Part shown: positions 46,201 to 48,647 of the stretch, piece after piece
How the letters are laid out: every line of letters starts with the position of its first letter
Numbering within the stretch: position 1 is the first letter of the stretch
Assembly: GCA_963668355.1 (NCBI GenBank)
Contig: OY764265.1
Location: 1,153,317 to 1,217,316, forward strand
DNA: 64,000 bases
Origin: Bdellovibrionota bacterium
GTDB lineage: Bacteria; Bdellovibrionota_G; JALEGL01; DATDPG01
Direction: 5' to 3'
Program-made: the position numbers and the translations under genes
Notes under the pieces: model-generated
Told to the model about the DNA's origin: nothing
Database searches by the model: none
What the model saw: only the letters and a program-made list of their open reading frames with translations

Positions 46201-46539
46201 TTAGTTAGCAAATTCAAACGGGGCGTACCGGAGTTGAGTTTTAAAATCATCAGCCGAGAAACAAATAAAGCAGAAAACCAAGTTCATCGAATGGCAGAAG
46301 TTGAAATTCTGATCATCGAAGGAACTTTCCCGGGGTTAATTGAGGAAGCCGACCTTCGCATTCACTTAGATGGAAATCATGCTCAAGTCACAGCTCCCGA
46401 AGGAGCAACGCCAGAAGAAATTCGAGCTGTCGAATTTCAAAATACGGTGCTTGATATCGAGCAACGCAGGCTCAATGTCATGCGGCGCTTTGCCAAATCA
46501 AACCCATTCGCCATCGTCATACCGGAGAACTTAGATTAA
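40288..46539 (+). CDS. Giant exported multidomain protein: helical N-terminal region, Ser/Thr/Pro-rich linker, HAD-like (sucrose-phosphatase-type) segment, SPS-like GT4 glycosyltransferase domain, degenerate P-loop kinase-like C-terminus
   Basis: Signal peptide MKTRDLLTKVLFSFLFGLLAFSGQSFA (start 40288 TTG or 40306 ATG); GDSGND near nt 43265; GT4 THGHHGDPVPQKVKDTGGQT near nt 43960 and AEAMAAG C-terminal motif; Walker-A-like GAYGFGRT near nt 45970. Confidence 0.75.
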   Translation: MAGKFRMKTRDLLTKVLFSFLFGLLAFSGQSFAQPVWPHYFQNLHPKVSSTETQYLLREFADECAALDVLGSQRYISWQNRGTSRKDRALEEEFDQAFEELKQLSFDIVDRLEPSELFLLLQQFPSLASRLGIPQYAHNLVSMVSIGRPKFGIGELEKFVRHRTLVRFLEFSEEEDPEFVAWLLEMLIKAEAHWELYGNLLARMDALESQRQYLGYTNDEKIDELRRHTEFYQKAKPQLAREILELKRATDHPRYEAWLNLAQTYLDESPDLPQNIGEGFGLPFYYGFRSGLDSLASVFHRFVLKDPKKASEATHNAVKWHERAFASSHYSGLRMDRLLKGATFRPENSPTLVGAGASETFLGVFAWLGTASGHIMEGDIGQGAKVLFIDFADGLFSLAAARDDFVEDWAEVAQMRLQAQLIEDETIRQEKIIQAGQMALANRQNGYFNPHYSAPYAIGAVMGAKKAFRLMVVPIRYLRSLNPRIQEAQARAGLETSSRGGQGFEWKPLDEQSRIQVESLIESLRKSENAELQALIQNVEKGEPPAGLFPDEGGSAAPSLSPRRGSGGGGPATLVESRPTTGSQTSTSTSVGQSARTLQPSQPSPSQGPVAQIQTPTQIAQGLVVGNVELLHANENEGEETSGEESSSEFIERLTREVRELQKRLFDFIPALAETFGSFENWVLKGMPLPRESELHVREIRRSIQLPPPSPETIPDQLIFNSPEYFRWLFTAVEALDKAEQEALTDALQGLNLMTERGGDVASDATRLSQIFQGVSTLNLSDFDGTRSRLEDLGEARNTEVDQRAEELHELEANLGLHTVKVSGRPLVWPEIGLLGSSQASPPLAIGEAGAAMAIDGVPSEEYQGFIDQRSGFNRSELDLQIRILLSAMVLHGEFLEAWRPQAQNGVTHKIAYDVKLKDDSDGETILKLQLWLQEVVGERAKVVQSHFIEAENVGHKNVYRIDIVPGDKADAADYVANQLAEADASLPMITAGDSGNDVGLVTAALNAEPVPLDQVLREIVSGKPLSSNVFIAVANRSSAISDEIHRVSIPATTYAGSVREKDHDKLRGVYFIQNEAGVLKVILDDAEMKTHRFDLPEHRHGPESILNAYELIFRPQDSSERDPGEFHDLLGEEGGRPRIWLEKEVVVSPTNTPNSSEAAMQAETLTWLKGVLRQRSRLLPGATQAMIDDVAEDVFWNIFVANEIPIHRGKNPNSEQLTLLHVTTHGHHGDPVPQKVKDTGGQTVWTLEHTKEYARQGHIAFQIGRMHGTYPRAESLLQTENGGRAWLVRVKSGEPDFIRKEELYDHIPKLALATTAVAALAGADVVIGNYAEGMTIANEVAFRTGIPVVDISHSLGKVKALGLDRSLSDSRAIWKPDYNFGTRFGLEELALLSAHGVVHNSPFEEEQQQHLYHLPKREYIVLPGGAVKPFFDARANPADAETLAQFGLEPGKYIIWWGRIAEVKTPERLVRVLGEAKALNPELMDGYKAVIIGGNPANPPEDQAATEDRIRAAAEEYGLSFGVYAEGSTPKVDVIRVEAQDQDKIAPLTAASLTYVGMQDYDAFCMGAAEAMAAGKAPIISRESGEAPADPSLRFGNESVLGMGIAKMLTDGRNAFLVNPRNSAEAGARLTEMVNDEALRLSMEQAAAEYADAEFNFRPLAQRQVAQVEDVLARSKSQKQNPLLGAHRTSPIFLGQQPRIKEIHHTLADRALSRVRKHVQRENARGNRAVIVLEGADEMAVALALSVQLNRFNLDARVVPIGDKNDVLHAAENLLALKNAAELETALTHVSVTSLSTSEVFDDTPLPLVDAEALFVMAPPGWKETYAQDLGAVTFDAFLDMAVADALSIQPNHIVGPGELPIPMEVHAKKAEQIAAFLTDKVPVGEKKVITISGAYGFGRTEIARLVADHLADMGRYVTVTSLDNWPILSPDKNDARRRYLFGEGGQKGLETLDEFIGTQHEIDFNGVNELVSKFKRGVPELSFKIISRETNKAENQVHRMAEVEILIIEGTFPGLIEEADLRIHLDGNHAQVTAPEGATPEEIRAVEFQNTVLDIEQRRLNVMRRFAKSNPFAIVIPENLD

Positions 46540-48647
46540 GTTGCGGACCGGACGGTGTAATCGACGTCTACTATCAAATCCGCTTGTTCTTGCATGGGCG
46601 CGATCATTTGATGCTCCAGTTCCAATACACGCTGAATAAAACCAAAATCCTGGTTCGGGTCTCGTTCTAGGTTTCGTGCGCGAACTACATCGATTTGTTT
46701 AAGCGAGCTTTGTTCCAAGAAAATTCGAGTATCCACATTCTCAAGTAGAAAACCGTACGTCAGGTCCACAAAGACGACATCCGCATTCGATAAATCCAAA
46801 GGAACCGATTCATATCGTCGACCGGGAACCGAGCGGCATTCCGAAGGGACATACACAACTTTGTTTTTTCGATCTTTGGCTTGAGCCAAGACGGCATCCA
46901 AGCGAGATAAGTCCACTTCATGAGGTCCGATGACCGAAGAAAGCTCTCCATTTTTGTCCGCTTGAACCCGCTGTGCATGATTTTTATCGGGAGCCAATTT
47001 GAAAAATGCATCTCCGGGAACCACAACACCAAACACACGGTCTTGTCGAAGCGCGAGGGTAAGAAGGTGCGCAATTTCGGTTTTCCCACTTCCTGACTCT
47101 CCACTCAGAACAATGATTTCACGCGTTGAGGCGTTTGAATCCACTTTTAATTTTTCGGAAAGTTTTTTTCGAAGTTGTTCAGTGGCCTTTTCATGAACAT
47201 CCCGAATTTTTGGATAATCCCCTCTCCAAGCAGGAACCGTTCGATGGAAACCATGTGGGTGTAGCTTCGTTCCCAAGAGGCCGTCGATGAGTTCCCCTTG
47301 ACGTTTGGCAATTCCTGGCCAACTAAAGTCTTTTACGGCCAACGTTTGTCCAGCGGTTGCCAGCGCTTTATATTCGTCCGGGCGTTCGATGTAATAAGCC
47401 AGTTTCTTGGCCCCACTTGCCGGATTTTCAGGATCAATGAGGACCGCATTTTTTTGATCCGAAAGCCAATCCACAATTCCCGCGCGGGAGGAAATGAAAG
47501 CCGGAATTCCAACCGCCATGGCTTCCGCCGGAGCCATTCCAAACGGCTCCAAAAACTGCATGCCCACGTACGCAAACGCACAATGAGCCAATTTGGCAAT
47601 TCGGTCGTGAGATGCGCTCTCCGTTCGAAGCACGTCCTGATCACCTAGGCCATAGTTCTTTTTCACATTGGCAATTTCGTGAAGGATCGCCTTTTCTTCT
47701 GCGGTGGCCTTTTCTTCGGAAGATCCACCGATGACGAGAAGTTTAAAGTCTTGGGCCAGAGCCCCGAGTTTTTTCAATTCTCCAAATACCTTAACCACGC
47801 CGGGAACGTTTTTGGCCGCCGAAAACCGTCCCCACGAAATGAGGAATTTTCCTTCGGTTAAACCGAACTCCTTGAGAAGGTCAGGCGAAGATGCTTTTTC
47901 ATACTCAGCGAAAAACGTAGCATCGGCTCCGGCGGGAAGAATCTCATGACGTTGTTCAAAGTCGTAATGTTCTTTCAGGGCTACCGGCTCCAAAGGCGTA
48001 TTGGCCATTTCTAAATCAGCCGCGCGAAGGGAGGCAAGCTCTAAGGATTCTCGCGTCCAAAAATTGTATTCGGCATCTCTTAAGTCTTTAGAATCCACGG
48101 GATTCAAGCCCAGGTTTTTCATTTTTAAAACGGAAAGAGAATGAGGAATGCAGGCCAACGGAATATTCATTTGTTCGGCGACCTCGGCTGAAACAGTCAT
48201 GCCATCGGCGTAGTGACCCACCACTGCCTGAGCACCAAAAAGTTTCCCAATCTGGACCGCTTCTTCAGCAAGGAGGGGCGTTAACGAATAAATCTCTTCT
48301 TTTCGAACAAAGGCATTGGAACCCGCGGGGATTCGAATCAACCAACAATCTTTTGCAAAGGTTTCGACATGAGGGGCGTCTCCAAAATGACGGGCCAGAA
48401 TGATGACTTTCCGCCCCTGGTCGGCCCACGCTTTTGAAACTTTCAATACGTAGTGAGTCTGTCCTCCGGTATCAGGAACTCCGGCGGGAGGGGGATCTCC
48501 CCAATGGCCGTGGGTGCTGATCATGAGAATTCGTTCCGCCCGCTCCTTTTTGGAATTGGTTTGATCGCAGGTGGGAATGCCGTGTTCTTGAAAGAGTTTT
48601 TCGTAATTCATCCGGGCCTCTTTGCCAGGGATCTCGATGCCCATCAA
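46536..48647 (-). CDS. Bifunctional SPS-like GT4 glycosyltransferase / PRK-uridine-kinase-family P-loop kinase
   Basis: N-terminal THGHWGDPPPAGVPDTGGQT and EPFGMAPAEAMAVGIP (GT4 E-x7-E); C-terminal Walker A LSGESGSGKTE; paralogous to the C-terminal two-thirds of the giant protein. Confidence 0.8.
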   Translation of the reverse strand: MMGIEIPGKEARMNYEKLFQEHGIPTCDQTNSKKERAERILMISTHGHWGDPPPAGVPDTGGQTHYVLKVSKAWADQGRKVIILARHFGDAPHVETFAKDCWLIRIPAGSNAFVRKEEIYSLTPLLAEEAVQIGKLFGAQAVVGHYADGMTVSAEVAEQMNIPLACIPHSLSVLKMKNLGLNPVDSKDLRDAEYNFWTRESLELASLRAADLEMANTPLEPVALKEHYDFEQRHEILPAGADATFFAEYEKASSPDLLKEFGLTEGKFLISWGRFSAAKNVPGVVKVFGELKKLGALAQDFKLLVIGGSSEEKATAEEKAILHEIANVKKNYGLGDQDVLRTESASHDRIAKLAHCAFAYVGMQFLEPFGMAPAEAMAVGIPAFISSRAGIVDWLSDQKNAVLIDPENPASGAKKLAYYIERPDEYKALATAGQTLAVKDFSWPGIAKRQGELIDGLLGTKLHPHGFHRTVPAWRGDYPKIRDVHEKATEQLRKKLSEKLKVDSNASTREIIVLSGESGSGKTEIAHLLTLALRQDRVFGVVVPGDAFFKLAPDKNHAQRVQADKNGELSSVIGPHEVDLSRLDAVLAQAKDRKNKVVYVPSECRSVPGRRYESVPLDLSNADVVFVDLTYGFLLENVDTRIFLEQSSLKQIDVVRARNLERDPNQDFGFIQRVLELEHQMIAPMQEQADLIVDVDYTVRSAT

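Follow-up and report, generated by a model that had tools for sequence, protein, structure and literature searches.

A glycosyltransferase–kinase fusion in a Bdellovibrionota bacterium: a possible bifunctional enzyme of sucrose 6F-phosphate metabolism

What chemistry might be served by a single polypeptide in which a glycosyltransferase resembling sucrose-phosphate synthase (SPS) is joined to a kinase? The question is raised by a gene (46536..48647, minus strand) in a 64,000-nucleotide stretch of a Bdellovibrionota bacterium genome (GenBank assembly GCA_963668355.1, contig OY764265.1, positions 1,153,317 to 1,217,316), hereafter the window. The gene encodes 703 aa from a TTG start, and an ATG one codon inside gives the 702 aa of the public record P0001. 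A preliminary description had read it as an unusual fusion of an intact SPS-like GT4 glycosyltransferase to an intact P-loop kinase of the PRK/uridine kinase family, and had proposed a bifunctional enzyme acting on a compatible solute or a modified nucleoside or sugar. The open reading frame (ORF) proved exact, a Pfam scan finds both domains, and a bifunctional enzyme for a small molecule of the sugar or compatible-solute type is, from its sequence, very likely. Among the candidate substrates, a sugar or compatible solute stands and a nucleoside is improbable; sucrose or sucrose 6F-phosphate (S6FP) is most likely, given the kinship of the kinase with the sucrose kinase of AgaSK and the SPS-type phosphate-binding residues of the transferase. 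We give an even chance to the explanation that we favour, namely that the fusion is a cytoplasmic bifunctional enzyme of S6FP metabolism, in which an SPS-type GT4 and a sucrose-phosphorylating kinase of the AgaSK lineage would share S6FP.

Domain architecture and catalytic residues

The SPS-type GT4 domain of GT-B fold (47283..48533, residues ~39–455; all features of the fusion gene lie on the minus strand) is delimited by Pfam, NCBIfam, PDB profile and Foldseek matches and by residue mapping. In Pfam the GT4 matches fall within residues ~39–450: Glycos_transf_1 scores 72.1 bits (cutoff 26.4) over residues 264–434, and GT-B_Sucrose_synth scores 33.2 bits (cutoff 23). Profile searches of the PDB gave the SPS of Halothermothrix orenii (HoSPS, 2r60; E 1.9e-47) as the closest solved protein, followed by the cyanobacterial SPS Tll1590 (TeSPS, 6kih; E 2.9e-38) and then by sucrose synthases (SuSy), and the top Foldseek matches were again HoSPS, SuSy and TeSPS (E 1e-24 to 2r60, 3s29 and 6kih). 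The motifs DTGGQT (48456–48473), PHSL (within PHSLS, 48132–48146), GR..AAK (within GRFSAAKN, 47808–47831) and E-x7-E (EPFGMAPAE, 47523–47549) are invariant across 21 homologs, and the two-Rossmann GT-B fold together with E-x7-E marks the domain as a retaining GT-B transferase of family GT4.

Functional residues of TeSPS were taken from its co-crystal study (PMC7264703; 6kih chain numbers equal the numbers of the paper +3) and carried over through a residue-level alignment. The catalytic residues His158 and Glu331 correspond to H169 and E367 of the window protein, the ribose-binding Glu339 to E375, Arg249 at the phosphate of UDP to R274 (with K279), Gln51 at the fructose hydroxyls to Q63, and Arg105 and Arg178, which hold the phosphate of sucrose-6-phosphate, to R115 and R199. 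Ser152 and Lys157 of HoSPS, which bind fructose-6-phosphate, correspond to S170 and K175. Every mapped catalytic, donor and acceptor residue, S170 and K175 included, is invariant in the 21 homologs, which are diverse. At two of the acceptor positions the solved enzymes divide by activity: the position of R199 is Arg in both SPS structures and Gln in both SuSy structures, and that of S170 is Ser in the former and Ala in the latter. The acceptor site is thus SPS-like, and the domain is expected to bind a 6-phosphorylated fructosyl group. The same comparison disfavours the combination of a SuSy-like GT4 with a fructokinase.

The best NCBIfam score was that of the curated SPS equivalog-domain model TIGR02472, at 112.6 bits against a cutoff of 576, and the domain is described here as SPS-like and is not filed as an SPS equivalog. 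This low score, an identity of 23% to SPS and the JGI label 'mannosylfructose-phosphate synthase' on some homologs speak for a different sugar pair, in which the GT4 would make or cleave another phosphorylated glycoside, e.g. mannosylfructose-phosphate, trehalose-6-phosphate or a glucosyl-phosphoglycerate, and the kinase would phosphorylate the matching free disaccharide or acceptor. With DTGGQ, HSL..K and the Arg178 equivalent all following the SPS pattern, we regard such a pair as improbable.

Between the two domains lies a conserved linker that includes the N-terminal segment of the kinase module (47133..47261, residues 463–505; H468, R469, W474, R475, G476, D477, P479 and H485 invariant), and its GD motif aligns with the N-terminus (M-x-GD) of stand-alone kinases. 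The kinase core follows (46539..47132, residues 506–703), with Walker A GESGSGKT (47079–47102, residues 516–523), the catalytic-Asp motif PGDAFF (47001–47018), the strand VDLTY (46755–46769), the lid RARNLERD (46659–46682) and LELEH (46611–46625). Pfam PRK (PF00485) matches residues 511–666 of the whole protein at 24.5 bits (cutoff 22) and the isolated C-terminal region at 28.3 bits, covering model positions 1–187 of 196, and 14 of 16 homologs match as well. Walker A, the Asp of PGDAFF, the acidic end of VDLTY, the arginines of RARNLERD and a family-specific E-H pair are invariant in the kinases of the fusion family. The region thus has the P-loop kinase fold and the marks of the PRK/uridine kinase family (Walker A, lid arginines and, after strand 2, a catalytic Asp), and the possibility that it might fold as something other than a kinase is not borne out. 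The full-length AlphaFold2 model has a mean pLDDT of 89.4 and a pTM of 0.88, and the catalytic intactness claimed for both domains is upheld by sequence, model and fold search.

Comparison of the kinase half with other kinases gave 16.8 for pantothenate kinase (3avo), 16.7 for a possible uridine kinase (1rz3), 16.3 for a putative fructose-transport kinase (3c8u), 14.9 for uridine kinase (3asy), 14.5 for phosphoribulokinases and 13.7 for D-glycerate 3-kinase. Specific models are missed by far, with 22.3 bits against 220.3 for TIGR00235 and 22.9 against 180 for NF004018 (both Udk), 22.7 against 362 for the phosphoribulokinase model NF011997 (only the P-loop region covered) and 20 against 227 for FrcK/PRK09270 in NCBIfam. 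As the uridine kinase, phosphoribulokinase and FrcK models are missed about 10-fold, the window kinase is none of those enzymes. This bears on the proposal that the kinase-like domain is a regulatory nucleotide sensor, tuning an SPS to energy charge, or a true uridine kinase that recycles a nucleoside. Relatives are recorded as 'uridine kinase family protein', and kinase-dead derivatives that keep their GT4 (the giant paralog and P0098, described below) indicate that the transferase can stand alone. Against this, all catalytic residues are invariant across the fusion family, the uridine kinase equivalog models reach about 22 bits against cutoffs of 180–220, a glycosyltransferase releases a nucleoside diphosphate (NDP) and not a nucleoside, and the isolated sucrose-kinase domain RgSK is an active sucrose kinase (PMC7688924), so that we consider a sensor or nucleoside kinase very improbable.

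Relatives and genomic partners of the kinase

An exhaustive search with the kinase region alone against 1.84 billion representative proteins returned 282 relatives at E <= 1e-3. Among the best 150 of them, 102 are stand-alone kinases of 181–260 aa; an SPS-like GT4 is attached in at least 11, a GH100 alkaline/neutral-invertase-like domain in at least 8 and a TreC-like GH13 in one. Two of the GT4-bearing proteins have the reverse order, kinase then GT4, which indicates an independent fusion, and other independent fusions join this kinase to GH100-like domains and to GH36. The stand-alone family (~215 aa), recorded as 'uridine kinase family protein', numbers at least 4,108 clusters. In a MAFFT alignment, 24 stand-alone kinases are 25–32% identical to the window domain and share with it an invariant set of residues: G54, E55, S56, G57, G59 and K60 (Walker A), D84, F87, N94, R98, G112, E115, Y169, R196, E216 and H217. 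Their consensus motifs are GESGSGKS, DDYFxLPPxxNHxxR, VGPxEV and VLEIEH.

The genes around the stand-alone kinases were counted at 62 metagenomic loci (L047–L108). An SPS-like GT4 directly adjoins the kinase in 18 loci, a GH13_18 gene in 14 and a GH100-like gene in 8, the last typically in the order LacI | TonB receptor – GH100 – kinase – MFS, which was confirmed in the genome of an isolate, Chryseobacterium camelliae CP022986 (L109/L110, kinase gene 9001–9648). Other adjoining genes encode LacI or DeoR regulators, ABC, MFS or SusCD importers, GlgC with DUF4922, GalT-like proteins and a ROK kinase. Since the kinase gene so often lies directly beside an SPS-like GT4, the window gene represents the fused form of a recurrent gene pair. 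Around the GT4 and kinase pairs lie either sugar importers with LacI or DeoR regulators, or GlgC with HIT/GalT-like genes, a context that fits a catabolic or remobilising role better than the synthesis of an osmolyte. We also observed a recurrent cluster of GlgC (above cutoff), DUF4922, kinase and SPS-like GT4 (L052, L054, L060, L065 and L066), which hints at ADP-glucose as the nucleotide sugar tied to the pair.

The GH13_18 neighbours are informative about the kinase product. Their NCBIfam name, sucrose phosphorylase, would suggest a fructokinase, but it is overruled by both overall similarity and signature residues: the match to the sucrose 6F-phosphate phosphorylase of Thermoanaerobacterium (6s9v) scores 715 bits, against at most 460 for true sucrose phosphorylases, and the signature of S6FP phosphorylases, taken from PMC6720575, was found in 10 of the 10 neighbours of at least 300 aa. 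Eight full-length proteins keep all six subsite residues of the Thermoanaerobacterium enzyme TtSPP (Arg134, His344, Arg195, Tyr201, Gln345 and Arg399), two of which are phosphate binders confirmed by mutagenesis (PMC6720575); a ninth, a fragment of 344 aa, keeps the five that it covers, and the tenth bears YYQ/Lys, by which the strict IcSPP/RgSPP type is recognised. As sucrose is no substrate for a strict S6FP phosphorylase, a kinase in the same import operon is best explained as the maker of S6FP.

The partners also bear on other substrates. All GH13_18 partners keep Gln345, a position at which glucosylglycerate phosphorylases carry Glu (PMC6720575), and they match S6FP phosphorylase much better than other specificities, which weighs against a different sugar pair. 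The idea of a glycerate kinase in glucosylglycerate metabolism, considered in view of the PRK-like nature of GLYK and of weak matches between the GH100-like domains and MGH/GgH models, was likewise rejected on the GH13_18 evidence. The GH100-like partner matches solely alkaline/neutral invertases in the PDB, again at odds with another sugar. In favour of other sugars, at least in side clades, some kinase relatives adjoin, or are fused with, TreC-like GH13 and GH65 with a beta-phosphoglucomutase-like domain: P0195 is a distant clade kinase fused to a TreC-like GH13 above the phosphotrehalase subfamily cutoff, and at L101:1098–4888 and L103 distant clade kinases lie beside a GH65 phosphorylase that also carries a HAD (beta-phosphoglucomutase-like) domain. 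These distant kinases may serve other disaccharides, e.g. trehalose. Two further arrangements were seen next to S6FP phosphorylases. At L074, L080, L084 and L096 an AXE1-type acetyl esterase gene lies between the ABC transporter genes and the kinase/phosphorylase pair, and this position may point to an acetylated sucrose-type substrate; at L069/L070:789–4640 two paralogous clade kinases flank a ROK-family gene directly upstream of the phosphorylase.

A kinase of this kind has been characterised. AgaSK of Ruminococcus gnavus is a GH36 alpha-galactosidase with a C-terminal 215-aa Walker-A 'sucrose kinase', modelled by its authors on uridine kinase, and its gene lies immediately upstream of that of an S6FP phosphorylase (PMC7688924, PMC6521584). 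The isolated domain, RgSK, phosphorylates sucrose with ATP (PMC7688924). The PDB entry of AgaSK (2YFN) does not include the kinase domain, so that searches of the PDB are unable to reveal it. A tblastn search with a stand-alone kinase against a plasmid collection led instead to a secondary replicon of Agathobacter (Eubacterium) rectalis (L114), where it matched the C-terminal end of an 'alpha-galactosidase' of 946 aa in a locus with the published architecture of AraC, ABC transporter, GH36-kinase and gtfA, the last bearing the strict-SPP signature. Homology with AgaSK was tested on this ortholog of the R. gnavus protein, identified by its locus architecture. Over 213 aa the window kinase domain shares 31% identity with the A. 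rectalis domain (BLASTP, E 1e-20), and hhalign aligned the latter with the fusion-family profile at a probability of 99.5% (E 4e-22, 198 columns) and with the clade profile at 99.7% (E 2e-26). By these comparisons no other characterised kinase comes nearly as close to the window kinase domain as the AgaSK-type sucrose kinase, and the stand-alone members of the 'uridine kinase family' are probably misnamed sugar kinases.

In a neighbour-joining (NJ) tree of the kinases, GT4-paired and S6FP-phosphorylase-paired members are intermixed, as expected if GT4 and phosphorylase are alternative processors of the same kinase product. In an NJ tree that includes the A. rectalis domain, this domain groups with the GT4-kinase fusion family, a placement that is soft owing to long branches. 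The fusion-family kinases form a deep clade of their own, 24–31% identical to AgaSK-type and stand-alone kinases.

The main rival explanation is that the kinase acts on fructose, yielding fructose-6-phosphate that the fused GT4 would glucosylate to S6FP, in sucrose synthesis or fructose salvage. This is a reasonable reading: the kinase would supply the SPS acceptor directly, a classic reason to fuse consecutive steps, and GH100 invertase-like partners in the clade could release fructose. The resemblance to 3c8u/FrcK, with the fructose-related phenotypes of frcK mutants, is also in its favour, except that FrcK is not the fructokinase of Sinorhizobium (S.) meliloti and its substrate is not established (PMC10433430). 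The closest characterised homolog acts on sucrose and not on fructose, and S6FP phosphorylases, frequent partners in the clade, yield no free fructose (the strict type being unable to use sucrose), so that their pairing with the kinase would be left unexplained. On balance we rate the fructokinase explanation as unlikely.

The fusion itself is uncommon, scattered across phyla and without functional annotation. Its description as unusual holds in the sense of uncommon and fails in the sense of unique, as the full-length architecture occurs in ~100 clusters at 90% identity (678–765 aa, query coverage 94–100%, 39–52% identity) and at 44 loci among GTDB species-representative genomes. Cluster sources are labelled Syntrophales, Thermodesulfobacteriota, Deltaproteobacteria, Kofleriaceae and other Myxococcota, Chloroflexota, Actinomycetota and Pseudomonadota, to which the genome scan adds metagenome-assembled genomes (MAGs) labelled Rickettsiales and Alphaproteobacteria. 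Records bear no other name than 'glycosyltransferase', to which JGI adds 'uridine kinase' or 'mannosylfructose-phosphate synthase', and literature searches for an SPS-kinase fusion found none. Clustering of the ORFs within ±8 kb over the 44 loci revealed no neighbour conserved past close relatives, so that gene context is uninformative on the fusion itself. The coupling to an S6FP phosphorylase gene that is seen for the stand-alone relatives (14 loci) and for A. rectalis does not extend to the window gene and its 44 orthologous loci, where no neighbour is conserved.

A shared intermediate for two active sites

In the bifunctional S6FP enzyme that we favour, the GT4 domain would, as a retaining enzyme, interconvert NDP-glucose and fructose-6-phosphate with S6FP and NDP, and the kinase domain would most likely turn sucrose and ATP into S6FP. 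S6FP is a substrate or product of both predicted reactions, which provides one shared intermediate for the two active sites. In the most parsimonious joint reaction sucrose would be phosphorylated to S6FP at the expense of ATP, and S6FP and NDP would then yield NDP-glucose and fructose-6-phosphate, so that sucrose would be remobilised or cleaved at the cost of one ATP with the energy of the glucosyl bond kept as a nucleotide sugar. The net stoichiometry equals that of sucrose synthase plus fructokinase. Running forward, the GT4 together with a separate phosphatase would support sucrose synthesis. The joint reaction has a parallel where a sucrose kinase is paired with S6FP phosphorylase. Of the orders of events considered earlier, making and then phosphorylating a compound, or phosphorylating and then glycosylating it, neither includes the best-supported possibility, in which both activities converge on S6FP, with the GT4 possibly working in reverse.

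The position of the phosphate is central to this scheme. Phosphorylation by AgaSK was stated to occur at C6 of the glucose moiety (PMC7688924), and yet the phosphorylase encoded just downstream accepts sucrose 6F-phosphate only, a gap that import of S6FP was proposed to bridge (PMC6521584). Import (restated in PMC12703740) and phosphorylation during translocation by a phosphotransferase system (PTS; Verhaeghe 2014, cited in PMC6521584) are the proposed sources of S6FP. The genomic associations described above argue for phosphorylation at 6F and for re-examining the regiochemistry of AgaSK.

Several points weigh against the proposed enzyme. If the published C6-glucose site of AgaSK applies to the window kinase, its product would be a substrate of neither SPS nor SPP, and the deep, separate clade of the fusion-family kinases means that their specificity may differ. 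The GT4 lies far under the SPS cutoff, and its acceptor could be another phosphosugar. The function of every member of the fusion family is a prediction. The fusion gene has no SPP, transporter or regulator gene linked to it, nor a neighbour conserved over the 44 loci, which leaves the direction of flux conjectural. As S6FP is a product of SPS as well as of sucrose kinase, a joint function needs the SPS-type domain to run in reverse. Reversal of SPS is thermodynamically feasible; to our knowledge it has not been demonstrated for any SPS in vivo. The broader proposal, that a single polypeptide breaks down sucrose through a 6F-kinase and a reversed SPS and that the family of at least 4,108 clusters consists of sucrose (or disaccharide) kinases feeding S6FP phosphorylases, is accordingly put forward tentatively, as something we hold to be possible and somewhat doubtful.

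If true, reversed SPS would be a third bacterial way to process S6FP, beside phosphatase and phosphorylase, and a function would be available for a fusion family of Syntrophales, Thermodesulfobacteriota, Myxococcota, Chloroflexota, Actinomycetota and Rickettsiales-labelled MAGs. Thousands of 'uridine kinase family' genes would be re-annotated as sugar kinases of sucrose operons. The proposal further bears on the moiety targeted by AgaSK, glucose or fructose, and on where the substrate of S6FP phosphorylases originates, to which the wider kinase family may provide the answer. The fusion family is widespread, and we found no literature on it. Enzymes that interconvert sucrose, S6FP and nucleotide sugars are also useful biocatalysts, e.g. 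for the regeneration of NDP-glucose from sucrose.

The giant paralog, the surroundings and known systems

The fusion gene converges on a giant ORF (40288..46539, plus strand; 2083 aa, or 2077 aa in the public protein P0108), which had been called its paralog. Over 580 aa the two proteins share 31% identity (E 4e-67), and a further kinase-like segment aligns at 27% (E 7e-11); the relationship is thus true and the duplication ancient. On the plus strand, the giant ORF encodes a Sec-type signal peptide (40288–40389), ~750 aa without a recognisable domain, a HAD-IIB-like segment (~42610–43302), a GT4 copy (43873–45297) and two kinase-like repeats (~45385–45837 and 45862–46536). The GT4 copy keeps every mapped residue except Glu367, the first Glu of E-x7-E, which is Asp. 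The first repeat lacks a P-loop, and the second has a degenerate Walker A (GAYGFGRT) with Lys replaced by Arg, lost lid arginines and E-Q in place of E-H; both look dead. In the HAD-like segment motifs I and IV were recognised by eye (SDFDGT, 42628–42645; GDSGND, 43264–43281), with scores under the cutoffs (S6PP 15.9 bits against 20.3, HAD-SF-IIB 15.6 against 41.8), and neither the PDB nor Pfam gave support for this or the N-terminal part. A word-indexed search of 5.8 billion clusters for homologs of the giant ORF returned only itself, and none of the 44 other genomes has a second copy within ~8 kb of the fusion gene. A nucleotide-sugar transferase domain is unexpected in an exported protein, and the giant paralog could be an effector.

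A parallel case is P0098 (L111:10001–13046, including the next gene), a homolog of 800 aa whose N-terminus is extended by a signal-peptide-like segment and whose P-loop is destroyed; 41 nt after its gene comes that of a 200-aa HAD-family hydrolase. P0098 is an independent kinase-degenerate variant that, like the giant paralog, combines a dead kinase part with a HAD-like module. The appearance of a phosphatase-like module where the kinase decays is consistent with a GT4 that makes a phosphorylated product.

The tail-to-tail overlap with the giant ORF is confirmed: the stop codons lie in one palindromic TTAA at 46536..46539, which provides TAA for the giant ORF on the plus strand and TAA for the fusion gene on the minus strand. 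The suggestion that this arrangement causes transcriptional interference finds nothing in its favour beyond the 4-nt convergent overlap: the junction shows no hairpin, inverted repeat or terminator-like element, and promoter and terminator signals are no more frequent than expected by chance. In compact genomes, convergent genes often overlap by four bases.

An ABC transporter (35958–40149), encoded immediately upstream of the giant ORF and also on the plus strand, comprises a TOBE-bearing ATPase, a binding protein and a fused double permease, and is most like the putative 2-aminoethylphosphonate type PhnS2T2U2, all scores being under the cutoffs. Large ORFs at 29519–35925, 48877–50901 and 53614–57128 (1298, 837, 674, 484 and 693 aa) have no NCBIfam match, nor has the 674-aa ORF, the one checked with Pfam, a match there; at least two of these orphans have signal-peptide-like N-termini. 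The neighbours in the window (this transporter, an SSF symporter and the orphan ORFs) offer no sucrose-related clue, and Rfam has no match in the window. A viral-contig scan was likewise negative.

Among known systems, SPS provides the nearest relative of the transferase half. The solved enzymes (2r60 and 6kih) share with the window GT4 the GT-B fold, both catalytic residues (His and Glu), the Glu, Arg and Lys that bind the nucleotide, the Gln that binds fructose and the Arg/Arg/Ser/Lys set at the acceptor phosphate, at ~23% identity; they differ in lacking the conserved N-terminal segment 'EY..LF..HGIP' of the window protein. In the place of the kinase of the window protein, the SPS of plants and cyanobacteria have an inactive SPP-like domain or no domain at all. 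For the kinase half, stand-alone 'uridine kinase family proteins' such as that of C. camelliae belong to the same clade, and differ in being separate genes in operons with importers, LacI and S6FP phosphorylase or GH100-like genes, whereas the fusion kinases form their deep separate branch. FrcK/PRK09270, the 'putative fructose transport system kinase' (3c8u), is unlike the window protein not a fusion.

A conceptual analogue is TreS-Pep2 (trehalose synthase-maltokinase) of the GlgE pathway, likewise a disaccharide enzyme with a kinase for that disaccharide, but with unrelated folds (GH13 and an aminoglycoside-phosphotransferase-like kinase) and another sugar. The closest parallel is AgaSK of R. 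gnavus E1 and its A. rectalis ortholog, in which a C-terminal ~215-aa Walker-A, uridine-kinase-like domain is likewise attached to a carbohydrate enzyme of sucrose metabolism. Common to the AgaSK-type domain and the window kinase are the motifs G-x-SGSGKT, GD..(F/Y)...P..N...R, G-x-P-x-E(V/I)D, FLE(S/Q)S and V(L/V)ELE, and clade residues set them apart (GES in the window protein against GGS in the P-loop of AgaSK, NH against ND, EH against EQ). The two proteins come from different phyla, the activity of the window protein being predicted from its sequence, and the window gene is not accompanied by the S6FP phosphorylase gene, ABC transporter or AraC of the AgaSK locus. What would be of a known kind here is a bifunctional carbohydrate enzyme with an AgaSK-type kinase; what appears to be new is its partner, an SPS-type GT4 transferase in place of the GH36 hydrolase of AgaSK.

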